The notes below the pieces were generated by a model that saw nothing but the letters and a program-made list of their open reading frames with translations, made no database searches and was not told the DNA's origin. A stretch of DNA of 36,362 nt from Myxococcales bacterium (GTDB lineage Bacteria > Myxococcota > Myxococcia > Myxococcales > Myxococcaceae): assembly GCA_030693825.1 (NCBI GenBank), contig JAUXZV010000023.1:102984-139345 (forward strand). The letters run 5' to 3'. Within the stretch, counting starts at the first letter, position 1. Each line of letters opens with the position of its first letter. Shown in pieces: positions 12,968-36,362 of this stretch. Position numbers and translations under genes: made by a program.

Positions 12968-14137
12968 CTGGTCTGGTGCGCGTCCTCCTGTACGACGCCC
13001 TCACCGAAGCCCGACCCCTCCGACGCGCCGCTCCAGCGCCAGGCGCTCGAGACGTTCGACACGGCGCTGGCGCGGCCGGCGCTCGAGAAGACGGTGACGG
13101 ACTTCGCGGCGCTCCGTGAGGCGGTCGACGGCTGGGCTCGCGCAGCGCAAGGGCAAGACGCGCAGGCGCTCACCTCGGCGAAGGCGGCGTTCGAGACGGC
13201 GTTCCTCACCTGGCAGCGGGTCGAGTTGCTTCAGCTCGGGCCCCTCGGCGCGGCGACGCAGGTGACGGCCGGTGAAGGGCTGCGAGACGAGATCTACTCA
13301 TGGCCGACGACAAACCTCTGCCGCGTCGACTCGGCGCTGGTGGCGAACACGACGCCTGACGACGCCTACTTCGCGACGGCGCTCGTCACCTCGAAGGGCC
13401 TCGCGGTGCTCGAGGAGCTGCTCTTCAACCAGTCGACGGCGAATGCGTGCCTGCCGAACGCCACCATCAACACCAACGGCAGCTGGGCCATGCTCGCGGG
13501 CTCGCCTGCGCTCGAGGAGCGGCGCAAGGCCTGGGCGCTCGGCGTGGCGCGGCACCTCGAGGCGACCGCGCGGCGCGCACGTGATGGGTGGAGCGCCCCG
13601 GGTGGCTTCGGCGACAAGCTCACGCAGGCCGGGGCCATGGGCTCGGTCTGGCGCACGCCGAAGGATGGCCTCGACGACGTCTACGCGGGGCTCTTCTATG
13701 CGGACCGCTGGGTGAAGGACTTCAAGCTGGGCGCACCAGCCGGCATCACCCCCGCGTGCATGGCGCAGTCGTGTCCCGCGCTCGCCGAGTCGCCGCGCGC
13801 CGGGCTGTCGACCAGGGCCCTGGTCGAGAACCTCGTCATGACGCGCGCCATCTTCACCGGCTCGTTCGAGCAGACCTCGAGCGCGGTGGGCTTCGACGAC
13901 CTGCTCGTCGAGCGTGGGGCCGGCGCGCTGAAGGACGAGATGCTCCAGAAGCTCGACGCAGCAGTGGCCGCCGCGCGCGCGCTCCAGCGTCCGGTCTCGG
14001 TCGCCGCCACCGAGGACCTCGACGGACTCCAGGCGCTCCACGCCGACGTCAAGGCCTTCACCGACCTCTTCAAGTCGCAGTTCGTCACCACGCTGTCGCT
14101 CAAGGTCCCCAGGGAGGGGGCCGGCGACAACGACTGA
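12938..14137 (+). CDS. Imelysin-like (Peptidase_M75 / IrpA-like) periplasmic or lipoprotein
   Basis: Helical-bundle protein with GLAVLEELLF-type and GVARHLEA motifs recalled from imelysin-like/EfeO-C family proteins. N-terminal hydrophobic signal IVLNIVLVWCASSC. Start uncertain: GTG 12938 or TTG 12944. GGAG lies 13 nt upstream of 12938. Confidence 0.6.
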   Translation: MHLRIVLNIVLVWCASSCTTPSPKPDPSDAPLQRQALETFDTALARPALEKTVTDFAALREAVDGWARAAQGQDAQALTSAKAAFETAFLTWQRVELLQLGPLGAATQVTAGEGLRDEIYSWPTTNLCRVDSALVANTTPDDAYFATALVTSKGLAVLEELLFNQSTANACLPNATINTNGSWAMLAGSPALEERRKAWALGVARHLEATARRARDGWSAPGGFGDKLTQAGAMGSVWRTPKDGLDDVYAGLFYADRWVKDFKLGAPAGITPACMAQSCPALAESPRAGLSTRALVENLVMTRAIFTGSFEQTSSAVGFDDLLVERGAGALKDEMLQKLDAAVAAARALQRPVSVAATEDLDGLQALHADVKAFTDLFKSQFVTTLSLKVPREGAGDND

Positions 14138-14168
14138 GCGCAGTGCACCCTTGTCACACAGAGGCACC

Positions 14169-15299
14169 ATGCATCGAGTTCTTCTGAGCCTGATCGTTCT
14201 TCCCGTCGCGGCCTGTGGCCCGATGGACATGCGTCTCGATGGCGGTGGTGGCGCAGGCGGCGGTTCGACCGGCTGCACCGTGACCCTCACCGGCGCCTAC
14301 CCCGACGCGGGCTTCGCGACGAACGCGGCCGCCGAGATCAGCCTCCTCGGCAAGCTCAACGCGCTCAACGCGCCGATGCGGGCCGCCGAGCTCGACGCGG
14401 GCTTCACGGTGACGCGCATGCAGCTCGACGAGCTCTTCAGCGCCGGCACGCCGTCGCTCTCGAGCCTCACCGCGGCGGGCTTCCAGCCAGTGGTCCAGGA
14501 GACCTTCACCGCCTTCCTCGCCTCCCAGGGCCGCGTGTGGACGCCGATGGACCCTCCGATGAGCGGCGGCATCTACGGCTCGGGCACCAGCCAGTGGATC
14601 TACAGTGAGCGCGGCGTCGACCTGCGGCAGGTCATCGACAAGGGGCTCTACGGCGCGCTGTTCTACGGCGAGGCGGTCAAGCGCATGCCGACGGCGACGA
14701 CGCCGGAGTCCATCGACCAGCTGCTCGCGCTCTACGGTGCCACGCCGAACTTCCCGCAGAACGACACCACGGCGCCCGGGCGCGACGAGCTGATGGCGAA
14801 GTACGCCAAGCGCCGCACGCCGCAGGGCATGACGGGGCAGTACACGACGATGCGAGATGCGTTCGTTCGCGCGCGGCTCGCGGCCGGTTCGGCCAGCTGC
14901 ACCGCCGAGCGCACGGCGGCGCTCGAGACCATCAAGAGCGAGTGGGAGGAGATGCTCGCGGCGACCGTCGTCTTCTACGTGAACTCGGCGGCGACGAAGC
15001 TGCAGGACCCGATGGCCGACGTGGCGAAGAAGTCTTCGGCGATGCACGACCTCGGGGAGGGCGCCTCGTTCTTCCTCGGGCTCAAGGCCGTGCCGCAGGC
15101 GAACCGGCGCATCACCGACGCGCAGATCGACCAGGTGCTCACGGCGATGAAGATCCCCTCGCTCGCGGGCTCGACGGCGTTCCAGTTGCTGACGACGGTG
15201 CCGCCTGACATCGACGCGCTGCTCGCGGCGAACATGCAGCTGCAGACCGTCTACGGCTTCACCGCCGATGAGATGGTGCGCTTCCGGACCAACTTCTGA
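14169..15299 (+). CDS. Lipoprotein of unknown function. Its position in imelysin/HTTM/TonB clusters suggests it could be the DUF4856-like lipoprotein of such loci (tentative).
   Basis: MHRVLLSLIVLPVAACG lipobox. Weak AGAGG RBS. Its stop overlaps the next start (TGATG), indicating translational coupling. Family assignment is from gene context only. Confidence 0.55.
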   Translation: MHRVLLSLIVLPVAACGPMDMRLDGGGGAGGGSTGCTVTLTGAYPDAGFATNAAAEISLLGKLNALNAPMRAAELDAGFTVTRMQLDELFSAGTPSLSSLTAAGFQPVVQETFTAFLASQGRVWTPMDPPMSGGIYGSGTSQWIYSERGVDLRQVIDKGLYGALFYGEAVKRMPTATTPESIDQLLALYGATPNFPQNDTTAPGRDELMAKYAKRRTPQGMTGQYTTMRDAFVRARLAAGSASCTAERTAALETIKSEWEEMLAATVVFYVNSAATKLQDPMADVAKKSSAMHDLGEGASFFLGLKAVPQANRRITDAQIDQVLTAMKIPSLAGSTAFQLLTTVPPDIDALLAANMQLQTVYGFTADEMVRFRTNF

Positions 15300-16609
15300 T
15301 GCGCGCGCGGTGGGAGCAGCTCGCGGGCTGGGCCGGCGCCTCGGAAGACGGCGCGTCGGTGCGGGTGTACCGCGCCCTCATCGGGCTGCTCCTCGCCGGA
15401 GCCCTCGTTCGCCTCCACCTGACGGGGTGGACGGGGCCGCTGTTCCTCGAGCCGACGTTCCGGTTCGAGTACGAGGCGTTCGCCTTCGTTCCCGTCATCC
15501 CGAAGGCGCTGGTGCCGTGGGCGCTCGCGGTGGGCGCGGTCGGCGCCGTGGTGCTGGGCTTCGGGGCCGGCTTGGCGCGCCGGCTGGGCGGTGTCGTCTT
15601 CCTCGCCTGCTTCGGGTGGCTCAAGCTGTATGACGTCACCAACTACCTGAACCACGACTACCTCGCGTTCCTGCTTGGGGCGCTGCTGACGGTGCTCCCG
15701 CTCGACGGCCCCTCGCTGCCGCGCTGGGCGCTGTGGCTCCTTCGTTTTCAGGTGGGCGTCGTCTACGTGCACGCCGGCCTCGCCAAGGTGAACACCGACT
15801 GGCTGCTGCACGGCCAGCCGCTCGAGACGTGGTTCGCGGCGAACCGGGGCCTGCCCGTGCTGGGCCCGTTGCTCGCGCTGCCGTTCGCGCCGCTCCTGGG
15901 GAGCTGGGCCGCTTGTCTCTACGACCTGACGATTCCGTTCTGGTTGTCGGCGCGGCGAACCCGGCCTTTCGCGCTGGTGGCGGTGCTCGTGTTCCACGGC
16001 GCGACGCACGCGCTCTTCGACATCGGCATCTTTCCCTTCCTGATGACGCTGAACGCAACGCTGTTCCTCGACCCGTCGTGGCCGCGGCGGCTCGGGTGGC
16101 GCCCGGTGGCCGTGGCGCAGGGCGGTCGGCCGCTCGGTGCAGCCCTGGCAGTTGGGCTCGCGATGTACGTCGCCTTCCAGGCGCTCTTCCCGCTGCGCTC
16201 GCACCTGCTCGGCGACGACGTGCTGTGGGACGAACAGGGCATGCGCTGGTCGTGGAAGGTGATGCTGCGCGAGAAGAACGGCGCGGTGAGCTACCGGGTG
16301 CGCGCGAAGGGCGAGACGCGCGAGTGGCAGATTGACCCTCGCGACGTGCTGACGGCGCGGCAGGCGAACGAGATGAGCGGCCAGCCGGACCTCATCGTGC
16401 AGCTTGGGCGGCACCTCGGGCGAGACCTCGCGCAGAAGCTCGGCCGGCCCGTCGAGGTGTTCGTCGACGCGAGGGTCTCGTTGAATCGGCGCGCGCCGAG
16501 GCTGCTCTTCAAGCCTGAGGTCGACCTGTTGACGCTCGAGAACCTTCGGCAGGCGCTGAACGAGTCTCCACGGCGGGCGTCTTCGCCAGAATCGGTCGCG
16601 GTGAGGTGA
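15299..16609 (+). CDS. HTTM-domain integral membrane protein (vitamin K-dependent gamma-carboxylase-like)
   Basis: VYRALIGLLLAGALVRLHL...LFLEPTFRFEYEAF...YVHAGLAKVNTDWLLHGQPLETWF matches the HTTM signature. At least 8 TM helices. Start is coupled to the upstream stop. Confidence 0.75.
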   Translation: MRARWEQLAGWAGASEDGASVRVYRALIGLLLAGALVRLHLTGWTGPLFLEPTFRFEYEAFAFVPVIPKALVPWALAVGAVGAVVLGFGAGLARRLGGVVFLACFGWLKLYDVTNYLNHDYLAFLLGALLTVLPLDGPSLPRWALWLLRFQVGVVYVHAGLAKVNTDWLLHGQPLETWFAANRGLPVLGPLLALPFAPLLGSWAACLYDLTIPFWLSARRTRPFALVAVLVFHGATHALFDIGIFPFLMTLNATLFLDPSWPRRLGWRPVAVAQGGRPLGAALAVGLAMYVAFQALFPLRSHLLGDDVLWDEQGMRWSWKVMLREKNGAVSYRVRAKGETREWQIDPRDVLTARQANEMSGQPDLIVQLGRHLGRDLAQKLGRPVEVFVDARVSLNRRAPRLLFKPEVDLLTLENLRQALNESPRRASSPESVAVR

Positions 16610-16610
16610 C

Positions 16611-19076
16611 GTGATGTGGTGGCCGGTCGTCGTGTCGTTGTTCGTCGCCCAGACGCCGACCGGTTCGGCTGACGGAGGCTCGTTCGACGAACCTCGCGGC
16701 CACTGGGAGTCCCGCACGCGAGTGAGCGAGCTGCCGCCGCTCGCCGACGGTGGCAGCTTCGAAGCGGATGAAGCTGCGGCACCGCGTGGCGTGACGGCGG
16801 CTGATCCCGACGGTGGCGGCTTCGACGCGGGAGAGGAAGCGACCCCGCGTGGCACGACGGTGGCTGACCCCGACGGTGGCGGCTTCGACGCGGGAGAGCA
16901 AGCCCGTGCCGCCACGGTGGCTGGCCCCGATGGTGGCGTGTGGGACGCCGAGGACGAAGCGGCGCCGGCCTCCGACGCCGGAGTGGGCTTCACCACGAAG
17001 GTGGTTGGGCAGCGGGGACCTGACGTTCGTCGCATCACCGGCAGCGCGGTGACGCTCGGCGAGGAAGACCTCGAGCGCCGCGAGCTCAACGACATTCATC
17101 GGGTCCTGGGTGAGGTGCCCGGCGTGTACTTTCGTGAAGAAGATGGGCTGGGCCTGCGGCCGAACATCGGCCTGCGCGGCGCGAACCCCGATCGGAGCGC
17201 GAAGGTCACGCTGATGGAAGACGGGGTGCTGCTCACGCCGGCGCCGTACTCCGCTCCCGCCGCGTACTACTTTCCGCTCGTCACCCGAATGGTGGGGCTC
17301 GAGGTCTACAAAGGGCCAGCGGCGATTCGGTTCGGCCCCCAGACGATTGGCGGCGCCATCAACCTGCGCACGCGCGAGGTGCCGAAGGAGCACCTCTTCA
17401 AGCTCGACGTCGCTGGAGGCAGCCGCTTTCAGGCGCGGGTGCACGGCGTCGCCGCGGTGGGCACGGAGCGCTGGGGCCTGCTCGCCGAGGGCGTGTTCCT
17501 GCGCGACGAGGGGTTCAAGGTGCTCGACCGCGGCGGCAACACCGGCTTCGAGCGCGGCGAGGTGATGCTGAAGGGGCGCGTGAGCCCCAACGACGCATGG
17601 CAACAGCAGCTCGAGGTGAAGGCGACGCTCTCGCTCGAGGACAGCCGGGAGACGTACCTGGGCGTGTCGACCGAGGACTTCGAGGCGACGCCGAACCGCC
17701 GGTACGCGACGACGGCGCTCGACCGGATGGAGTGGAACCGGCTCTCGGTGACGGCCCGCTGGAGCGCCCAACCGGCGTCGTGGTTGTCGTTGTCTGCGGC
17801 GGCGTACCGGCACTCGATGTTCCGCGCGTGGAATCGGCTCGATCGCTTCCGGCGGGGCCCGGGCCTGTACGAGCTGTTGGTGCAGCCGGTGCGCGGAGGA
17901 CTCGACGGTCAGTACCTCGGCGTGCTGCGCGGGGCGGTCGATTCGAGCAGCCTCGACGAGTCGCTCATCGTGCTGAACAACGCGCGCACCCTGGTGAGCC
18001 AGGGGGTGCAGGCCGAGGCGGTGGCGAAGCTGACGACGGGGCCAGTGCAGCACGAGCTCGAAGCGGGCCTGCGGTTCCACCACGACGAGGTTCGGCGCAA
18101 CCACACCGCCACCGGCTACGCAGTCGTCGGCGGCGCGCTCGAGCCTGACGCCTTGCCGGTGGCGCAGGACGCGCTCAACCGGGGGCTCTCGCGGGCCGGG
18201 GCGCTGCACCTGCATGACACCATGACGTGGGGGCGCCTGCTGGTGTCGCCGGGCATGCGCGTCGAGCTCATCGACACGGTGTTCAAGGACGACCTCTCGG
18301 GAAAGACGTCGCGGTCGCTCCAGGCGGTGCCGCTCTTCGGCGCGGGCGCGGTGGTGGCGTTGCCGCTGGGCCTCAACGTCTTTGGAGGTGTGCACCAGGG
18401 CTTCAGCCCCGTGACGCCCGGCCAGTCGGCGGACGTGCGGCCCGAGCGGGCGCTGCATGGCGAGCTCGGCGTTCGGTCGCCGTCGCGGCGTCGTCGGCTC
18501 GAGCTGGTGGGGTTCTGGAGCGAGTACTCGAACATCACCGGCGAGTGCACCGGCAGCACGGGCTGCGTCGACGACGCGCTCAACCGGCAGTTCAACGGGG
18601 GCGCGGCGCGCATCGTCGGGCTCGAGGCCCTGGCGTCGGTCGTGATTCCGCTCCCGGCCGACATCGAGCTGGTGCCTCAGGTGACGTACACCCTGACGAG
18701 CGCGCGGTTCTTGTCCGACTTCACCTCGTCGAACCCCATCTGGGGCGTGGTGCGGGCGGGCGACCTCATTCCGTACGTGCCGACGCACCAGGGCTCGGCG
18801 CGGCTCATCTTCAACCGCGACGCGCTGTCGCTGTCGGTGGGCGCGGAGTTCTCTGGTGGCGTCGTCGAGGAGGCGGGCGACGGCCTCTCGCAGCCGACGG
18901 TGCCGGGGCGGGTGTTGCTCGACGCGACGGCGAGCTACCGGGTGGGGCTGTTTCAGTTCTACGCGCAGGGCATGAACCTGACGAACCAGCAGGTGGTGGT
19001 GGCGCGGCGCCCATTCGGTGCGAGGCCGCTGGCTCCGCTCGCGGTGCAAGCCGGCGTGCGGGTGCAGTGGCCGTAG
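16611..19076 (+). CDS. TonB-dependent outer-membrane receptor with an N-terminal acidic repeat extension
   Basis: Plug domain (DIHRVLGEVPGVYF...NIGLRGANPDRSAKVTLMEDGVLL...YKGPAAIRFGPQTIGGAINLRTRE) followed by a long barrel ending ...RVQWP. The GTG at 16611 or ATG at 16614 follows GAGG. It starts 1 nt after the HTTM stop. Confidence 0.8.
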   Translation: MMWWPVVVSLFVAQTPTGSADGGSFDEPRGHWESRTRVSELPPLADGGSFEADEAAAPRGVTAADPDGGGFDAGEEATPRGTTVADPDGGGFDAGEQARAATVAGPDGGVWDAEDEAAPASDAGVGFTTKVVGQRGPDVRRITGSAVTLGEEDLERRELNDIHRVLGEVPGVYFREEDGLGLRPNIGLRGANPDRSAKVTLMEDGVLLTPAPYSAPAAYYFPLVTRMVGLEVYKGPAAIRFGPQTIGGAINLRTREVPKEHLFKLDVAGGSRFQARVHGVAAVGTERWGLLAEGVFLRDEGFKVLDRGGNTGFERGEVMLKGRVSPNDAWQQQLEVKATLSLEDSRETYLGVSTEDFEATPNRRYATTALDRMEWNRLSVTARWSAQPASWLSLSAAAYRHSMFRAWNRLDRFRRGPGLYELLVQPVRGGLDGQYLGVLRGAVDSSSLDESLIVLNNARTLVSQGVQAEAVAKLTTGPVQHELEAGLRFHHDEVRRNHTATGYAVVGGALEPDALPVAQDALNRGLSRAGALHLHDTMTWGRLLVSPGMRVELIDTVFKDDLSGKTSRSLQAVPLFGAGAVVALPLGLNVFGGVHQGFSPVTPGQSADVRPERALHGELGVRSPSRRRRLELVGFWSEYSNITGECTGSTGCVDDALNRQFNGGAARIVGLEALASVVIPLPADIELVPQVTYTLTSARFLSDFTSSNPIWGVVRAGDLIPYVPTHQGSARLIFNRDALSLSVGAEFSGGVVEEAGDGLSQPTVPGRVLLDATASYRVGLFQFYAQGMNLTNQQVVVARRPFGARPLAPLAVQAGVRVQWP
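16746..16980 (+). repeat. In-frame tandem repeat (~60-63 bp period, ~4 copies) encoding DGGGFDAGEE-A-PRGTTVADP units in the TonB receptor N-terminus
   Basis: Successive units beginning gacggtggc(a/g)gcttcga... are directly visible. Copies 2 and 3 are nearly identical over their first 30 nt. Confidence 0.6.
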
Positions 19077-29778: not shown

Positions 29779-30243
29779 TCAGTCGCAGGTGACAACGGTG
29801 CACGCGCCCCACAAGCCAATGCGGCTCGTCTTCGCCTGCGACTCGTACGTCTCGAACTCGTCGCGCCGCGCGCCGCCCGATGGAGACACGTACAGCGTGC
29901 ACGCGTAGCCCTGCTCGACGAGCGTGCGGTTCAGGTCGACGCCGTTGACCTTCACGTAGGCCAACGTTCGCCCGAACCGGTCGGTGCAGCCGGCCTCGTC
30001 GTAGCTGAGCTCCACCGTCTTGCCCGTCACGGTGTCCGAGGTGAACTGCGCGGCTTGCTGGCCGAAGCAGTCGGTCTTGCCGTTGGTCGACTCGGGCGTG
30101 TCGACGAGGAGCAGGCGCACCCGCTTGCCGTCAGACAGCTCGAGCGTATCGCCATCGATGGCGCGGCTGACGACGGCGGTCGAGGGCCCGCAGAGGCTGG
30201 GTGGCGTGGGCATTCCACAGGCCGCCACCATGGGCATCATCAC
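29779..30243 (-). CDS. Thermonuclease (staphylococcal nuclease / SNase fold), probably secreted or lipoprotein
   Basis: IDGDTLEL (Ca ligand Asp), RVRLLLVDTPES (Arg35, Asp40, Thr41, Glu43 equivalents), DRFGRTLAYV (Arg87 equivalent) and IGLWG align with SNase catalytic residues. The start is unclear: GTG 30243 gives a short MMMPMVAAC lipobox, and there is no canonical start upstream in frame. Confidence 0.8.
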   Translation of the reverse strand: MMMPMVAACGMPTPPSLCGPSTAVVSRAIDGDTLELSDGKRVRLLLVDTPESTNGKTDCFGQQAAQFTSDTVTGKTVELSYDEAGCTDRFGRTLAYVKVNGVDLNRTLVEQGYACTLYVSPSGGARRDEFETYESQAKTSRIGLWGACTVVTCD

Positions 30244-30272
30244 CAGCGCTGCGCTCCAGGGCTTCGAGCGCG

Positions 30273-32588
30273 TCAGGGCGCGCCGCCGTCACAGAGGGGG
30301 TTCAGCTCGGTCGGGCTGCCGTAGTCGCCGGGCCCGGCGTCGGTGGCGAAACGGTTCGGCGCGATGCACAGGTTCGCCGGCACGTCGTTGATGGCGGGCG
30401 TGATGAGCATCGGGTCGATCAGCAGCTCACCGGGCACCTGCCATGACTTGCCGCTCGTCGACCGGAAGAAGGCGATCTCGTCGATGCCGGCGTCACCGCG
30501 GAAGAGCCGCAGCAGCTCGTTGCCCGAGCTGCTGATGCCGATGGTGAAGGTGGCGATGGGGGGCGGTAGCCCGCCGTTGAGGAACGCGTTCGCGCTGCGC
30601 GCGAGAATCGCGTACGTCGTCGCCGGCACGCGCAGGCAGTTCGACGAGGCGATGGTGTTGCGCGTGCCTGCACCGTTGGCGACCGAGAGGCCATTCAGGT
30701 CGACGTCGGTCGTGGCGTACACCTCGAACCAGGTTCCGACCGTGGTGCTGACCGACGGGCTTGGCATCACCTCGGTGATGACGAGGTCGCCCGGCTCTGC
30801 GGCGACGATGGGCCGCGGGGTGCCGTTGTCGAGGCAGGTGCCCGTCATGGCTTCCGGAGCGCAGACCGGGTTCGCCGCGCCAGGGGTGCCAGAGCTGCCA
30901 GGCGTGTACTCGCTGCTGGTCGGCGTGTCGCACCAGTTGGCCTCGACCGCAGCGAGCGCAGTCGTGGGCGTCGCAGGCCCACCGAGCATGCGGCTTCGCC
31001 CGGAGCGCGCCGTGCGCACCCACGTGTATTCACCGACGACCTTCGTGTCGCAGCGAACGCCCACGGTGCCCGACGAGTTGTTCAACGCGCCCAGGTCTGC
31101 GCCGTAGGCGTAGCTGATCCACGCGGGGTTCGGCCCGGTGCGCACGTCGCCGACCGCGACCGCCTGGCCCGGCGGCACGATGACGGAGCTGCGCACGACG
31201 TGGGACCTGGGGGTCGTCGCGCCCTGGCGGTAGGTGAGCGTGAGGCCCGCGAGGTCGATGGGCGCGGCCGTCGTGTTGAAGAGCTCGAACCACTCGAGGC
31301 CGGTGTCGGTGCTGGGCGGGTCGACCATCACCTCGGTGACGACGAGGTCGCCCCCGTCGATGGCGTTGCAGTCGAAGGTCGGCAGGCCGCCGTCGGGCAC
31401 CACCACGACGCCAGAGTCCGCCGCGCAGGCTCCGTTGGCCGCGGCGGGCGTTCCGAAGTCGCCCGCGCTCCCCATCCACGCTGAGCTGGCTTTGCAGAAC
31501 GAGTCAGGGGTGTCGTTGAGGCTGGGCAGAATCTCGTCGGGGTTGGCGAGCAGCTCGGGTCGCACCTGCCATGAGACGCCGGTCTGCGAGGCGAAGAAGG
31601 TGGCGTCGTCGATGCCGGCATCACCACGCACCAGCCGCAGCCGCTCATTGGCCGACGAGAGGCTGACCGAGAACGTCGCCACGGCCTTCGGCAGGCCGCC
31701 GTTGACGAAGGCGTCGTTCGAGCGCGCGATGATGTTGTACGACTGCGCCGCCACCGTGAGGCACTCAGGCGAGGTGAGCGTGGCGCGGCTGGTGCTCGTC
31801 GCGATGGCGAGGCCGTTGAGGTCGACGTCGGTGGTGGCGTAGAGCTCGATCCACTCGCCGAGGGTGTCGGTGACGGCCCTCGGGCTCGCCATGACCTCGG
31901 TGATGAGCAGGTCTCCGGCCTCGGCCGCGACGATGGGGCGGGGCATGCCGTTCTGCAGGCAGGTGCCGACCATCGCCTCGGGAGCGCACTGCGGGTTGGG
32001 GCCGCCGGGCGTGCCGTAGCCGCGCGGCGTGTACTCGGTCGAGGTGGGCGTGTCGCACCAGTTGGCCTCGTTCGAGACGCGCGAGGCATCGGGGTCGACG
32101 CCACCGCCGAGCATGCGGGAGCGGCCCGAGCGCGCGGCGCGCGAGTAGCTGTACTCGTTGATGGCCGTCATGCCGCAGCGAATGGCGACGGTGCCTGAGG
32201 TCTGGCTGAGCGCGCCGAGATCGTCTCCGTAGCTGTAGCCAATCCACGAGGGGTTGGGGCCCGAGCGCACGTCACCGAGCGCGAGGTAGCCGCGGGCCGG
32301 CACCTGCACCGAGGCACGAACGGTGTGCGACTTCGCCGTCGAGGTGCCTTGCCGGTAGGTGATGGTGTAGCCGCGCAGGTCGATCGGCGTGCCGAGGGTG
32401 TTGAAGATCTCGATCCACTCGGCGCCGGTGTCGGTGCCCTCGGGGTCGAGCATCAGCTCGGTGATGACGAGGTCTCCAGCCACGCGGCCTTTGCAGGCGT
32501 CGGTGGGCATCTCGACGGGCGGGGTACACGACACGGCCGCGACGGCCGCCACCAGGAACATCACTCGAATTGAAGGCACGTTAGTCAT
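30273..32588 (-). CDS. Lipoprotein composed of four lamin-tail domains (LTD) arranged as a tandem A-B-A-B duplication
   Basis: Four LTD signatures (GDLVITELMLDPEGTDTGAEWIEIFN...IDLRGY; GDLLITEVMASP...GEWIELYATTDVDLNGL; GDLVVTEVMVDPPSTDTGLEWFELFN...IDLAGL; GDLVITEVMPSP...GTWFEVYATTDVDLNGL). Start ATG 32588 (MTNVPSIRVMFLVAAVAAVSC) overlaps the upstream stop within ATGACTAA. Confidence 0.75.
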   Translation of the reverse strand: MTNVPSIRVMFLVAAVAAVSCTPPVEMPTDACKGRVAGDLVITELMLDPEGTDTGAEWIEIFNTLGTPIDLRGYTITYRQGTSTAKSHTVRASVQVPARGYLALGDVRSGPNPSWIGYSYGDDLGALSQTSGTVAIRCGMTAINEYSYSRAARSGRSRMLGGGVDPDASRVSNEANWCDTPTSTEYTPRGYGTPGGPNPQCAPEAMVGTCLQNGMPRPIVAAEAGDLLITEVMASPRAVTDTLGEWIELYATTDVDLNGLAIATSTSRATLTSPECLTVAAQSYNIIARSNDAFVNGGLPKAVATFSVSLSSANERLRLVRGDAGIDDATFFASQTGVSWQVRPELLANPDEILPSLNDTPDSFCKASSAWMGSAGDFGTPAAANGACAADSGVVVVPDGGLPTFDCNAIDGGDLVVTEVMVDPPSTDTGLEWFELFNTTAAPIDLAGLTLTYRQGATTPRSHVVRSSVIVPPGQAVAVGDVRTGPNPAWISYAYGADLGALNNSSGTVGVRCDTKVVGEYTWVRTARSGRSRMLGGPATPTTALAAVEANWCDTPTSSEYTPGSSGTPGAANPVCAPEAMTGTCLDNGTPRPIVAAEPGDLVITEVMPSPSVSTTVGTWFEVYATTDVDLNGLSVANGAGTRNTIASSNCLRVPATTYAILARSANAFLNGGLPPPIATFTIGISSSGNELLRLFRGDAGIDEIAFFRSTSGKSWQVPGELLIDPMLITPAINDVPANLCIAPNRFATDAGPGDYGSPTELNPLCDGGAP
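30300..32480 (-). repeat. Internal ~1.08-kb tandem duplication (two LTD-pair modules) within the LTD lipoprotein gene
   Basis: Protein halves (residues ~50-385 and ~415-770) are collinear and highly similar, including the RSGRSRMLGG and NWCDTPTS(T/S)EYTP segments. Nucleotide identity not computed. Confidence 0.6.
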
Positions 32589-33711
32589 CCTCTTCACTGC
32601 GGTCGGCCCGTTTCTGATCATCAGTCAGCAGCTTCTCGAGCGAGGTCGACGGCGCGAGCACCTGCCCGGGGAGTGAGACGACCACCTGCAGCCGCTCCCA
32701 GCCCTTCTCGTTCTTGTACTTCTGCACGGTGCCGCGCACCTGCACGTATTCACTCTTCTTGAACTGCACGCCGGTGGACAACAAGACGTCGCGGTCGAAG
32801 AAGACGACGTCGAAGTCGTTGGTGCGGGTGCGGGCGAGCTTCACCACCGAGGGCCCGGTGCCTTCGCTGTATTTCAGGTCGCTGACCGAGCCGAGAATCG
32901 TCACCTCCTGGCCGACCTTGCTCTCGAGCTTCAGCATCGCGTCCCAGCGGGTGAGCGCGATGTAGTGCTCCGGGTCTTCGACGGCGGCCTTCTCGAAGCG
33001 GGTGATGACGGCCGCGCGCTCGGCCCACCACTTCAGGCGCTCCTCGTAGTCGGGGTAGGCCATGGCGCCCTGCTTCCAGATGCCGCGCTGGCCTTCACGC
33101 GCCTCGCGCTCGGCGTCGACGAACTCTTTGTGGAAGCGGCGGCTGCGGCCGTACTTCACGAAGTAGGGCGAGAAGCCGGCCCGCACACACTCGACGTTGT
33201 AGTTCACCCACTGGCCGTTCTTCTTCGCGAACACGTAGGCGAGGTAGCGGTTGTAGAAGTCGCGGATCTCGCCGGGGTGGTCGCGCTCCATGCGCACCTC
33301 GCGAACGTCTTCGAAGAAGGCCTGCGCGTAGTGCTTGGCGTCTTCGCCCAGTGGCGTGGCGTACTTCGCCGGCCGCGACGACGTTCCCTGCATCTGCTTC
33401 TTGTATTGCTCCCAGCCCGCCGCGAACGCCGCGCGCTCGGAGTCCTTCTTGAACGTCTCTTCGGTGTCGAGGCCCAGCAGACGCAGCGACGCTGGCAGGC
33501 CCTTGACCTTGATGGTGTCGCCGTCGAGCACCGACGAGGCGCCCTCGATGGGGAACTCGCCGAGCTCGAGGCTGACGGTCTCGAGGCGCTTGAGCAGCGA
33601 GCGGGTCTCGTCCTTCGTGAAGCGCTTGGACTGCTCCGTGGTGACGCCAGCGCACGAGAGCGCCAGGAGGAGCGCGGTGACGGCGAGAAGGCGAAGGGGG
33701 AGCGAGATCAT
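32581..33711 (-). CDS. SNase-fold nuclease lipoprotein with a C-terminal ~200-aa extension (possible OB-fold / nucleic-acid binding)
   Basis: Lipobox LLLALSC. VLDGDTIKVKG, LRLLGLDTEE, FYNRYLAYVF and GIW conserve the SNase catalytic and Ca-binding positions. It starts 6 nt after the upstream OMP stop. Confidence 0.75.
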   Translation of the reverse strand: MISLPLRLLAVTALLLALSCAGVTTEQSKRFTKDETRSLLKRLETVSLELGEFPIEGASSVLDGDTIKVKGLPASLRLLGLDTEETFKKDSERAAFAAGWEQYKKQMQGTSSRPAKYATPLGEDAKHYAQAFFEDVREVRMERDHPGEIRDFYNRYLAYVFAKKNGQWVNYNVECVRAGFSPYFVKYGRSRRFHKEFVDAEREAREGQRGIWKQGAMAYPDYEERLKWWAERAAVITRFEKAAVEDPEHYIALTRWDAMLKLESKVGQEVTILGSVSDLKYSEGTGPSVVKLARTRTNDFDVVFFDRDVLLSTGVQFKKSEYVQVRGTVQKYKNEKGWERLQVVVSLPGQVLAPSTSLEKLLTDDQKRADRSEEDD

Positions 33712-33717
33712 GGTGGG

Positions 33718-35925
33718 TCAGAAGCTGGTGCGGAGGTCGAGGAGGAAACGATGCTCTGGAGAGGGCTGCCGGCGCAAGGTCGAGGCCCGTTGGTCGAGCC
33801 ACACGAACAGGTCGTAGCGCGCCGCGACGCGCGTGCCCTTGAACGGAATCCACGCGGCCTCGAAGAACGTCCACAGCGAGTCTTCGTAGGTGGTGGGGCT
33901 GTCGATGCCCTCGGCGCGCAGGCGTGAGCGCAGCCGCAGCGAGAGCCAGTCGACCGGCTGACTCATCGCCTCGACCCAGACCTGCAGGTCGTTGCGAAAG
34001 TTCTCGCGGTACGCGCTCGAGAGGTCGTCGCGCCACGAGAACGAGGCCTGCTCGGTGAAGCCCAGGCGCTTGCCGAAGGGGCGCACGTCGATGCGCTGCA
34101 CGACGCGGTACGAGTCGCAGGTGAAGAAGGTGACCTCGCCGTCGAAGTCGTCCGGGGTGTTGAAGAACTCGGGCATGCCCGAGACCACCTGGGTCTGGCT
34201 GCAGACCCCGCGTTGGCTGACGGCGAGGTTTCTGTCGCTCAGGCGGAACCAGATGCTGGGCTTCAAGCCCCTGAAGCCCGTGAAGTCGACGCGCGTGAGG
34301 AGGATGAGGTTGGTGGTGCCTGCGCGGCCTCCCCGGCCGGCGAAGGGCAGCGTCCAGAAGTCGGCGGTGGCGCGAAACTGCCAGTCGCGACTGAACTTGC
34401 CGAAGTAGCGCACCCGCGCGCCGAGCTCGTTGCGCGCCCGCTGGCCGGCGTCTTCGTCGGGCCCTGAGAACGGCCGTGCGTAGGGGTTGAGGAACCGGTT
34501 GTCGTAATAGCGGAAGACGACCTCGAGCTCGTGGCCCTTGGGCGCCCAGGTGGTGCGCTGCACGGCGCCGAAGCCGCCGCCCTGGTTGTTGATGGCCTTG
34601 TCGAAGCTGCGCGTCACCTCGAGGTGCAGGTTGACGGGGCCGAGCACGGCCTGCGCGTCGACGCCGATGGCTCCGTAGGCGCCCCCGTTGGGGTAGCGCG
34701 AGGTGTCCTGGAAGTCGGGCTGCACCGCGCTGCCTGGAGGCACGGTGTTGAAGAAGGGCACCGCGCCGTACCCCGTGATGCCGAAGCGAAGGGCGTAGTT
34801 GGGCTTGAAGTCGACGTGGCCGCCGGCCGAGAGCTCGTCGAAGAAGCCAGGCAGGGTGGCGTAGCGAAGCCGCCATGGGGTGCTCGGGTCCTGCGGGTTC
34901 AGGATGGAGATGCGCGGCGAGCTGCAGTCCGAGTCGGTCGACGAAGGGTCGAGGCAGGTGGCGCGATCGTACAGATCGTACTGGTACACGCCGCGCGACT
35001 GGTACGAGAGGAAACCGTAGAGCGAGAGCGAGCGCTGGTCGCCGAGGTCGAGGTTCTCGATGCTGCCGGCGACGCCGCGGAAGGCGTCGCGCGTCGCGTA
35101 GTCGGCGGTGACGTAGCGGCTGCCGTCCTGGCACTCGGGTGGCGGGGTCGCGCCGGTGTCGACGCTGGTGCGGCAGAGGGTCGAGAGGTCCTGGTTTCGC
35201 CTGAAGTCGTCGGTGAGGTAGAGGCCACGCGGGGTCACCCGGCGCGTGTTGTCGAGGGTGAGGCGCTCGCCGAAGCCGATGGTGAAGGTGCCGACGATGA
35301 CGCGGCGGTTGCCGTTGAGCCACTGCAGGAACAGGCGCGGCGCGTCGAGGCGGTACCTGTAGCCTTCGGTCGCGAGGCCCTGGAGCGTCTGGTCGAAGCG
35401 GGGCTGCACCGGGTCGAGCCGGCTGGTGACGAGCATGGCGCCGGCGGTCAGGTCGAGCGGGCCCCTGAGCCGGGCCGCGAAGAGCGCCGGCGGCGCGAGC
35501 GAATCGGTCAGCGTGTATTGGGTGAGCAGGCGAAGCTTGCCGCCGATCGGCAGCTTCTCTTTCACCGGCTCGAGCGAGATGTAGACGGCGATGCCGATGA
35601 GCTGCTCGGCGGTCATCACCCCGGCGCCGACGAGCTCGGCCGGGTCTTCGATGCGGCCCTTCTGCGTGCGGTAGAGGATGAGCTTGTCGACGTCGTCGTA
35701 GGTGAGGCCGGGCAAGTCATAGAGCCTCTCGCGCGGCGCCGAGTTCAGGTCGACGCCTTCACGAAGCAGCTCGAGCAGGGTGTCGCCGGTGTCCTGCGAG
35801 ATGTCGCCTCGCTGCACCATCGCGAAGATGTCTTCTTCGTCGTCGGCGTCGACGACGGCCTCGTAGATGGCCCCGAACGCGGAGGCCGACCACAGGCAGG
35901 CTGCAAAGGCGATGACCGGGCGCAT
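33718..35925 (-). CDS. Predicted outer-membrane beta-barrel protein with an N-terminal ComEA-like helix-hairpin-helix DNA-binding domain
   Basis: Signal peptide MRPVIAFAACLWSASAFGA. The HhH segment DLNSAPRERLYDLPGLTYDDVDKLILYRTQKGRIEDPAELVGAGVMTAEQL matches the ComEA-type pattern (DLNTA...LPGIG...I..YR...G.F...EDL..V.GIG). The remaining ~600 aa are rich in alternating aromatic/Gly beta-strand patterns and end in a terminal Phe (...LDLRTSF). ATG at 35925 with a GGGTGG SD-like sequence upstream. Confidence 0.65.
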   Translation of the reverse strand: MRPVIAFAACLWSASAFGAIYEAVVDADDEEDIFAMVQRGDISQDTGDTLLELLREGVDLNSAPRERLYDLPGLTYDDVDKLILYRTQKGRIEDPAELVGAGVMTAEQLIGIAVYISLEPVKEKLPIGGKLRLLTQYTLTDSLAPPALFAARLRGPLDLTAGAMLVTSRLDPVQPRFDQTLQGLATEGYRYRLDAPRLFLQWLNGNRRVIVGTFTIGFGERLTLDNTRRVTPRGLYLTDDFRRNQDLSTLCRTSVDTGATPPPECQDGSRYVTADYATRDAFRGVAGSIENLDLGDQRSLSLYGFLSYQSRGVYQYDLYDRATCLDPSSTDSDCSSPRISILNPQDPSTPWRLRYATLPGFFDELSAGGHVDFKPNYALRFGITGYGAVPFFNTVPPGSAVQPDFQDTSRYPNGGAYGAIGVDAQAVLGPVNLHLEVTRSFDKAINNQGGGFGAVQRTTWAPKGHELEVVFRYYDNRFLNPYARPFSGPDEDAGQRARNELGARVRYFGKFSRDWQFRATADFWTLPFAGRGGRAGTTNLILLTRVDFTGFRGLKPSIWFRLSDRNLAVSQRGVCSQTQVVSGMPEFFNTPDDFDGEVTFFTCDSYRVVQRIDVRPFGKRLGFTEQASFSWRDDLSSAYRENFRNDLQVWVEAMSQPVDWLSLRLRSRLRAEGIDSPTTYEDSLWTFFEAAWIPFKGTRVAARYDLFVWLDQRASTLRRQPSPEHRFLLDLRTSF

Positions 35926-36011
35926 CGAGCGGCGCCACCCTACCCGCAAACAGCAGGCAGGATCGTGACCCTTTCACTCGTCAGGAAACGGCAAGGTGAC
36001 GCCACTGAAAC

Positions 36012-36362
36012 CTAGTTGTTGGGCGCGCCGGCGTTGATCCAGTCGCGAATGAGGTCGATCTGCACTTGAGGCAGACAGGAATTGCCCGAGCAGCCTCGGG
36101 GCATACGTCCGCCACACGTCTGCGTCCCTGCGACTTTCTGGAAGAGCAAGCTCGCCGTGGCGTCGCTCGCGACGAGGCGCGGGCCACCGCATGAGCTCGT
36201 GCCGCGCACGTAGGTGTTGGCCGCGGCGACGGTGTCGGTCGAATGGCAGGTGCTACATCGTGCCGCGAGAATCGGTGCGACCTGCGACATGAAGCTGACT
36301 TGTGCGGTTCCCCCTCCGGCAGCGCCACCTGCCGCCGAGCCACCTGCTGCCGAGCCACCTGC
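36012..36362 (-). CDS. Partial CDS, 5' end outside the window: protein with a Gly/Ala/Ser-rich linker and a C-terminal PSCyt1-like (planctomycete cytochrome c-type) domain
   Basis: VAPILAARCSTCHS...LIRDWINAGA matches the PSCyt1 domain pattern, including CxxCH. The frame stays open upstream to the window end through AGGSAAGGSAAGG (15-nt direct DNA repeats at 36320-36362). Confidence 0.5.
   Translation of the reverse strand, partial: AGGSAAGGSAAGGAAGGGTAQVSFMSQVAPILAARCSTCHSTDTVAAANTYVRGTSSCGGPRLVASDATASLLFQKVAGTQTCGGRMPRGCSGNSCLPQVQIDLIRDWINAGAPNN

Follow-up and report, generated by a model that had tools for sequence, protein, structure and literature searches.

Do the four lamin-tail domains (LTDs) of a myxobacterial protein reflect a recent duplication, and what could a protein made only of such domains do between two nuclease genes? 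These questions are raised by a gene on the minus strand of a 36,362-nt stretch of Myxococcales bacterium DNA (GenBank assembly GCA_030693825.1, contig JAUXZV010000023.1, positions 102,984 to 139,345), referred to here as the window. Coordinates are positions in the window, and residue numbers of the LTD units are those of a 782-amino-acid (aa) open reading frame (ORF). An interpretation made from the letters alone (the sequence-only reading) had described the gene as a recent internal duplication of a two-LTD module. Our analysis indicates that the four-domain form is real but ancient: an A-B module was duplicated once, along the branch leading to a small clade of myxobacteria. We consider it probable that the product, a predicted envelope lipoprotein carrying this old duplication, belongs to a conserved four-gene cassette as its member without catalytic function and has a scaffold or stalk role.

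Two A-B modules of lamin-tail domains

Self-comparison of the gene revealed direct, collinear repeats 1125 nt apart (1122-1128 nt) that cover nearly the whole gene, in blocks 74-215 nt long and 71-76% identical. The extended nucleotide-level repeat that a dot-plot had been expected to reveal is thus present. In a protein alignment of the two halves, 211 of 366 columns were identical (58%) and 5 contained gaps; nucleotide identity was 67% over 361 aligned codons. The halves had been called near-identical. Motifs RSGRSRMLGG, NWCDTPTS.EYTP, and CAPEAM.GTCL, on which that description was based, are indeed found in both halves, but overall identity is limited to the above values. The units, in order from the N-terminus, are:

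31986..32495, minus strand: LTD unit A1, residues 43-212; A-type; motifs RSGRSRMLGG and NWCDTPTS, 4 Cys; beta-sandwich in the model
31425..31985, minus strand: LTD unit B1, residues 213-399; B-type; net charge about -11
31371..31424, minus strand: flexible linker between the A-B modules, residues 400-417; outside the repeat
30861..31370, minus strand: LTD unit A2, residues 418-587; copy of A1, 59% protein identity, offset 1125 nt
30291..30860, minus strand: LTD unit B2, residues 588-777; copy of B1, 58% protein identity

A and B units are both LTDs, but their mutual identity is only ~30%. Because this is far below the identity of the A pair and of the B pair, the duplicated piece is the two-LTD A-B module and the layout is A1-B1-A2-B2; the tandem duplication of a two-LTD module that had been proposed is therefore confirmed. 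The units tile residues 43-777, interrupted by a single 18-residue linker. The linker is placed outside the repeat because half-to-half local alignment stops at the last Cys of each half (C399 and C777). Tandem Repeats Finder gave nothing relevant, the period being above its 500-nt limit and the copies too diverged, and self-BLASTP of the protein returned the identity match only.

The protein had been described as composed solely of four LTDs, and every search agreed with this. Pfam scan detected LTD (PF00932) alone, in four stretches (E=6e-41; 139.7 bits vs. cut-off 34.3), and neither Pfam nor NCBIfam scans detected a second domain, catalytic or other. Comparison with PDB sequences gave no match. 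The AlphaFold model, based on a 39-sequence alignment, had mean predicted local distance difference test score (pLDDT) 80.5 and predicted template modelling score (pTM) 0.36, a pair of values consistent with four all-beta domains that are each well folded but have no defined orientation to one another. In the linker, pLDDT fell below 50 from residue 387 to 400 of the 768-aa model, equivalent to 401-414 in the 782-aa ORF. In Foldseek, domain-level matches were the Ig-folds of lamin A/C and lamin B1 only (1ifr, 3gef, 3jt0, 3umn; probability 1.0), with TM-scores, normalised to target length, of 0.6-0.75 (0.72-0.75 for 1ifr and 3jt0). Whole-chain matches to GhpA, SpyCEP, and complement proteins (TM-score <0.15, low probability) were rejected as generic multi-Ig similarity. 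Each LTD unit has four conserved Cys. As modelled, the protein would resemble beads on a string, with the flexible linker separating the two A-B modules.

The ExeM model of NCBIfam (NF033680) scored 20.1 bits vs. a cut-off of 1300 and covered the first LTD only. Since Pfam found no EEP or OB domain in the LTD protein either, identity as an ExeM/Xds-type nuclease was rejected.

Age of the duplication

Divergence between the halves, estimated by the Nei-Gojobori method (NG86), was ~0.70 at synonymous sites (dS) and ~0.37 at nonsynonymous sites (dN). GC content at third codon positions (GC3) of the gene is 92%, so that synonymous divergence cannot rise much further. We compared codons at positions having the same amino acid in both copies, taking the expectation from each gene's own codon usage. 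In the window gene, the same codon was present at 133 of 211 such positions, vs. 129.7 expected. Results of this test were:

Window gene, A-B module 1 vs. 2: z=0.5
P0015 (three A-B modules), module 1 vs. 2: z=5.1 (positive control)
P0015, module 2 vs. 3: z=3.2
Archangium protein P0025, module 1 vs. 2: z=2.6

Synonymous sites between the halves of the window gene are saturated and retain no trace of common ancestry. P0015 (locus L087, 1647-5498; 1283 aa) consists of three A-B modules, 61-69% protein-identical, plus a terminal B unit; it is a younger expansion of the A-B module, in the same position flanked by genes for SNase (staphylococcal nuclease) proteins.

The stretches shared by the two halves had been taken as a sign of recency. 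However, motifs RSRML.G, EANWCDTP, GTPG..NP.C, and GDLvITEvM are conserved in A and B units throughout the family; the motifs in question reflect constraint, not youth.

A word-indexed search retrieved 663 relatives of the LTD protein. In the best 120 of these, LTD is the main Pfam domain (a few have one further family), and those that bear a source name are labelled Myxococcota or Deltaproteobacteria metagenome-assembled genomes (MAGs). When relatives were split into units, the following architectures were obtained:

ABBB: n=27
ABB: n=25
ABABB: n=22
ABBBB: n=19
ABAB: n=13
ABBBBB: n=7
ABBBBBB: n=3
AABB: n=2
ABABABB: n=1

Every orthologue having ≥65% identity is A-B-A-B or A-B-A-B-B. All 14 orthologues of these two types have diverged alike, with 52-61% identity of A1 to A2 and 53-60% of B1 to B2. 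Identity across orthologues is position-specific: 69-96% for A1-A1 and 68-88% for A2-A2 pairs, vs. 54-60% for A1-A2 pairs. Among contigs from one genome per species, A-B-A-B was present in 7 further GTDB species (L007-L013) and ABABB at five loci (L014-L017, L021). A two-unit A-B form of ~400 aa was found in Archangium gephyra SDU49 (L079, 8001-9194, NZ_CP102578.1) and in a related MAG (L082). The two-unit gene in L079 and L082 lies between the genes for an HhH-barrel protein and a small SNase protein, and these loci do not have the gene for an SNase-OB protein (the partner genes are described below). Because A. gephyra SDU49 is cultured and its genome is complete, it offers a convenient experimental system for the minimal A-B form. 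Across Myxococcota, the orthologous gene has 2 to 7 units within the same operon; array length clearly changes over evolutionary time through unit gain and loss.

Unit trees were constructed by neighbour-joining with bootstrap. In the A tree, A2 units of the window gene's clade grouped at 100%, A1 units (including the single A unit of A-B-B relatives) also grouped at 100%, and the two groups were joined at 98%. Internal A units of Archangium-type ABABB proteins formed a separate clade (100%). In the B tree, B1 and B2 of the window gene's clade grouped at 99%, apart from a "terminal B" class (91%). The likely path to the present form would start with an A-B-Bterm ancestor, in which duplication of A-B would have given A-B-A-B-Bterm, the state retained in P0012 and P0014; loss of Bterm would then have given A-B-A-B, the form of the window gene. 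Independent duplications of A-B or A occurred in Archangium-type proteins, P0015, P0039, and P0058.

These findings contradict the proposal of a recent duplication: synonymous sites are saturated, halves are equally diverged in orthologues, orthology is position-specific, and A1 and A2 form clades with full bootstrap support. The sequence-only reading had itself named orthologue comparison as its refuting test, expecting an ancient duplication to leave uniformly four-LTD orthologues with equally diverged halves. The halves are equally diverged; unit number is not uniform. By that reading's own criterion, recent duplication is already refuted for this gene. The duplication is older than the radiation of the clade into at least eight species-level lineages, with or without gene conversion.

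Assembly and frequency of LTD-only proteins

Internal repeats of this gene had been considered a hotspot for recombination and a potential cause of assembly collapse. The longest exact run common to both halves is 24 nt, and since the halves have no more than 24 identical bases in common, they are poor substrates for homologous recombination or assembly collapse. ABAB-type arrays were recovered in independent NCBI, ENA, JGI, and Logan assemblies, and a 9.4-Mb long-read contig of an ABABB relative shows the same kind of array. Mis-assembly was rejected in view of this short exact match and the same architecture in assemblies of other species. Although the repeat is collinear and tandem, unit number varies in the family, and excess codon identity in P0015 indicates that younger duplications occur, it is very hard to believe that the window gene is a recent two-LTD duplication with near-identical, recombination-prone halves or a collapsed or mis-assembled repeat, given the low identity of its halves, the agreement of synonymous identity with codon-usage expectation, the same layout with equally diverged halves in at least seven species, the 100% bootstrap values of the A1 and A2 clades, and the concordant assemblies.

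Proteins with multiple LTDs and no catalytic domain had also been considered uncommon. This is not the case. HMMER scan of 1.84 billion cluster representatives (50% identity) gave 5831 matches at E≤0.001, 1862 at E≤1e-10, and 496 at E≤1e-30, in addition to the 663 word-indexed matches; and tandem LTD repeats in single bacterial proteins had been noted by Mans et al. 2004, in the statement quoted in PMC6085458. LTD-only array relatives range from 2 to >20 units, with up to 22 matched stretches in 6922 aa. Giant relatives P0245, P0289, P0249, and P0326 have 4000-6900 aa and 12-22 LTD-like matched stretches, showing how long such arrays can grow.

A conserved four-gene cassette

In the window, the LTD gene is the third of four contiguous genes on the same strand (29779-35949, minus strand), separated by gaps of 6, 1, and about 29 nt:

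33718..35949, minus strand: gene 1, 743-aa outer-membrane protein with HHH_3; signal peptide, HhH domain, beta-barrel ending in Phe
32581..33711, minus strand: gene 2, 376-aa lipoprotein with SNase and C-terminal OB-like domains (Pfam SNase E=3.9e-11); stop codon 1 nt before the LTD gene start
30273..32579, minus strand: gene 3, LTD array (four LTDs)
29779..30243, minus strand: gene 4, small SNase protein, 154 aa from GTG 30243 (Pfam SNase E=5.9e-23)

All four genes are also present in a 99%-identical MAG, in an Archangium genome, and beside a three-unit orthologue. A Sandaracinaceae genome has the same gene set in permuted order, with extra PLD-like and phosphodiesterase genes, and the P0015 contig (L087) has the SNase-OB, LTD, and small SNase genes. 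Many junctions in L001-L006 and L087 have overlaps or gaps of 0-10 nt, and overlaps of 1-10 nt are frequent. To assess conservation more broadly, we considered 80 species-level loci, of which 39 were well flanked (≥4.5 kb on either side). Their gene content was:

All four genes on one strand: 29 loci
Without SNase-OB gene (cultured Pyxidicoccus, Archangium gephyra, and similar): 4 loci
No partner gene: 4 loci
Other partial sets: 2 loci

The order barrel > SNase-OB > LTD > SNase was found in 19 of the 29 complete loci and SNase-OB > LTD > SNase > barrel in 8; an extra LTD gene was present upstream in 2. Judging from record titles, the two main orders track taxa: Myxococcaceae/Archangiaceae-type vs. 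Sandaracinaceae/Nannocystaceae-type. A TonB_2 gene and two small upstream genes, which in four loci had seemed to belong to the system, were dropped from the core, being present in close relatives only (20 of 87 loci).

Several observations were made on the surroundings of these loci. In Sandaracinaceae MAG L005 (4355-6778, 14100-15623), the cassette is flanked by genes for a type I phosphodiesterase (PF01663), an extra 221-aa single-LTD protein, and a PLDc_2 protein, a setting that fits a nucleic-acid or phosphate-scavenging locus. In the window, 36012-36290 (minus strand, crossing the window end) encodes the C-terminal part of a ~195-aa protein with a CSTCH (CxxCH-like) motif; its Pfam haem-binding matches are faint (E about 0.1), and the gene is kept upstream of the cassette in close relatives only. 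The record titled "Comamonas sp. KCTC 72670" (L086, BNCN01000008.1) has the myxobacterial barrel/LTD/SNase arrangement, and its organism label may be wrong. Elsewhere in the window, genes at 13932-19076 (plus strand) encode a DUF4856 protein, an HTTM/vitamin-K-dependent-carboxylase-like protein, and a TonB-dependent receptor, which are unrelated to the LTD finding.

Gene start, envelope targeting, and partner proteins

The longest ORF of the LTD gene (30273..32621, minus strand) has 782 aa counted from its first ATG. Three starts were considered, and the preferred gene and its signal are:

30273..32579, minus strand: LTD-only lipoprotein gene, 768 aa from GTG 32579; stop codon 30273-30275
32526..32579, minus strand: lipoprotein signal peptide, read in the sequence, with lipobox VAAVS|C; Cys codon 32526-32528 (residue 32 of the 782-aa ORF)

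The alternatives are ATG 32621 (782 aa) and ATG 32588 (771 aa). GTG 32579 is the more likely start, because it sits 1 nt past the TAA of the upstream gene (32581-32583), has GAAGAGGA 9-10 nt upstream, and corresponds to the start assigned to P0001, a 768-aa database protein 99% identical to the LTD protein; ATG 32588, used in the sequence-only reading, is possible. The lipobox Cys is invariant across the 39-sequence alignment, and a lipobox is present in most homologues. From these signals, the LTD array is predicted to be a lipid-anchored envelope lipoprotein. Antisense ORFs within the gene (e.g., 30343-31107, plus strand) were rejected: their high GC3 comes from third positions common to the real frame, and homology does not back them. 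A search for transcription signals gave neither a sigma-70-like promoter nor, on the minus strand of the operon, a terminator-like site.

Signals for envelope targeting are present in orthologues of all four products: the LTD protein and both SNase proteins have lipoboxes, and the barrel protein has a signal peptide and a C-terminal Phe. The SNase-OB protein has a weak match to tRNA_anti-codon (OB; E=0.0023), matches to thermonucleases in PDB, and a lipobox (LALSC) that is kept in orthologues. Residues corresponding to the catalytic residues and Ca2+ ligands D21, R35, D40, T41, E43, and R87 of staphylococcal nuclease are conserved in both SNase proteins. Their active sites are intact by sequence, and both nucleases are apparently active.

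In the window gene's clade, the small SNase gene has no canonical start that would give a lipoprotein signal of normal length (in the window, 30243-30288, minus strand); the window copy has only a very short signal. Its stop-to-stop frame reads TRSKPWSAALVMMPMVAAC, and the first ATG, GTG, or TTG leaves MMMPMVAAC before the Cys. Orthologues from other clades have ordinary lipoprotein signals. The short signal could be due to a non-canonical start, re-initiation after the LTD stop codon, or loss of export.

The barrel protein matched HHH_3 with E=3.2e-5 and 24.4 bits vs. a cut-off of 27, i.e., below threshold in the window copy; the domain is recorded for most homologues. Its AlphaFold model is confident (pLDDT 84.4, pTM 0.83); the HhH domain is helical and N-terminal, and the barrel comprises roughly 24-26 strands. 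Foldseek matched the barrel only to generic large barrels (ushers, MtrB, TonB-dependent transporters; TM-score ~0.35), and no characterised relative of the HhH-barrel was found. The family gave 130 matches, with named sources all from Myxococcota, and its genes almost always adjoin SNase/LTD genes. Nucleic acid might pass through this large HhH-fused barrel, which is a candidate for a non-secretin route across the outer membrane.

Proposed function

The mature LTD protein has isoelectric point (pI) 4.39 and a net charge of about -33, and every unit is acidic. In the family, median pI is 4.3 and median charge is -12 for B units and -5 for A units. We propose that the cassette would capture nucleic acid outside the cell, cleave it at the surface, and perhaps import the fragments. 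Within it, the acidic, disulfide-rich LTD array would form an extended scaffold or stalk, keeping the nucleases, or the complex, in place or at a set spacing. Complex formation, a surface location, and any role in DNA use are what we infer. The position of the gene between two nuclease genes had suggested a non-catalytic scaffold that binds DNA or a surface. Conservation of the arrangement across Myxococcota supports a functional meaning of this position, and a scaffold is plausible; direct DNA binding is opposed by the acidic charge. We favour a scaffold or stalk over a direct DNA binder because of the strong acidity of the array and because OB and HhH modules are already present in the cassette.

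A broader model, which we offer as a tentative possibility, is that the four genes encode an undescribed, Myxococcota-wide outer-membrane machine that forages on extracellular DNA. In this model, DNA would be cut at the surface by the two lipid-anchored SNases, which would be Ca2+-dependent; fragments would enter through the ~24-26-strand barrel, drawn in by its ComEA-like HhH domain; and the nucleases would be positioned by the LTD array, a stalk or scaffold whose length could be adjusted (2-7 units). Gain of A-B modules by duplication, such as that in the window gene, and their loss would tune the reach of the array.

Three other functions were considered for the LTD array. By analogy with the lamin Ig-fold, the array might be a multivalent DNA-capture protein that feeds the flanking nucleases. 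Several lineages have secreted nucleases with a fused LTD, for which a role in aiding DNA binding has been proposed (PMC4486849), and ExeM of Shewanella oneidensis, which combines LTD, OB, and EEP nuclease domains in one polypeptide, degrades DNA more slowly in vitro when the LTD is removed (PMC6085458). The conserved Arg-rich RSGRSRML motif of A-type units and the conserved synteny with nucleases point in the same direction. However, the pI and charge of the protein and of the family, the presence of OB and HhH domains as dedicated nucleic-acid-binding modules of the cassette, and the nearly normal in vivo phenotype of ExeM lacking its LTD (PMC6085458) make DNA capture by the array unlikely.

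Somewhat less likely again, the array may be a general surface adhesin or matrix protein (binding, e.g., polysaccharide or prey surface), linked to the nucleases only by co-regulation in predation or biofilm formation. Disulfide-bearing acidic Ig-like arrays are typical of adhesins and stalks; arrays also occur outside the cassette in 4 of the 39 well-flanked loci, and giant forms reach the size given above. Loose co-regulation alone would hardly account for the gene order conserved in two Myxococcota classes, with its tight or overlapping junctions.

It is improbable to a slightly greater degree that the acidic array is a DNA mimic acting as inhibitor or chaperone of both SNases while they cross the envelope, in the manner of an immunity protein. 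Such a role would agree with the strong negative charge and with a gene that is placed between two nuclease genes and translationally coupled. Nuclease inhibitors of the barstar and NuiA types are small, whereas the LTD protein has 770 aa and its orthologues vary from 2 to 7 units. It has a separate lipoprotein signal and units with four Cys each, features typical of an exported structural protein, and unit number is independent of the number of nuclease genes: loci without SNase-OB keep 2-3 units.

Several points weigh against our interpretation of the LTD protein as a scaffold or stalk with a single old duplication. In ExeM, the LTD is dispensable in vivo for degradation of extracellular DNA. 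The lipoproteins may lie on the surface or in the periplasm. The trees are neighbour-joining only, and the same topology would result if an older duplication had been homogenised on the clade stem by gene conversion. Loss of a module in A-B-B orthologues is suggested by the B tree (83%); the A tree does not resolve the order within the A1 clade. The four well-flanked loci without any partner gene indicate that similar LTD arrays also exist outside the cassette. The roles assigned to cassette members are predictions from sequences and models, and no paper on the cassette was found in the literature searched.

Comparison with known systems

The duplication itself is ordinary: an old array expansion in a large family, with no assembly risk and with a database name that is already correct. 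What appears to be new is the fixed operon partnership, across Myxococcota, of an LTD array with two SNase lipoproteins and an HhH-fused barrel; the literature searched contained no description of the cassette or of the myxobacterial LTD proteins. A stand-alone LTD array is a fixed part of a nuclease/outer-membrane-barrel operon in a predatory phylum that forms DNA-rich matrix. Because the LTD is genetically separable from the catalytic parts and cultivable carriers exist, among them Archangium gephyra SDU49 (L079), Pyxidicoccus caerfyrddinensis CA032A (L075), and Paraliomyxa miuraensis (L060), the role of bacterial LTDs near nucleases can be approached by single-gene deletion.

Xds of Vibrio cholerae is an extracellular nuclease with LTD, OB, and EEP domains. 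Like ExeM and Xds, the cassette brings together, at the cell envelope, LTD, an OB-type nucleic-acid-binding module, and a secreted nuclease that depends on divalent cations. ExeM is one polypeptide with a single LTD and EEP catalysis, whereas the cassette has four LTDs as a separate protein, SNase-type nucleases, and OB on one nuclease. YhcR of Bacillus subtilis, cited in PMC6085458, has OB folds, SNase, and 5'-nucleotidase domains and is anchored to the cell wall; it shares with the 376-aa neighbour of the LTD protein the combination of SNase and OB fold on an envelope-anchored nuclease, but it has no LTD, is a single polypeptide of a Gram-positive host, and has no outer-membrane partner. ComEA, the periplasmic or membrane-bound HhH DNA receptor of competence, has an HHH_3-type domain in common with the barrel protein, whose best PDB sequence match is ComEA 8dss (not significant). 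In the cassette, by contrast, HhH is fused to a ~24-26-strand barrel, similarity is below threshold, and no competence genes are adjacent.

LTDs are also known as fusions to DNase I-family enzymes of halophiles (PMC4486849), and an LTD-bearing nuclease is present in DNA-degradation loci of Izemoplasma (PMC8289736). The closest known systems are the tandem LTD-only arrays named "lamin tail domain-containing protein" in NCBI, which likewise have LTD (PF00932) as sole domain in tandem, are secreted or envelope-targeted, and have the lamin Ig-like fold. The window gene does not differ from these in kind; its Myxococcota subfamily adds alternating A and B subtypes, a predicted lipid anchor, and a fixed operon context.

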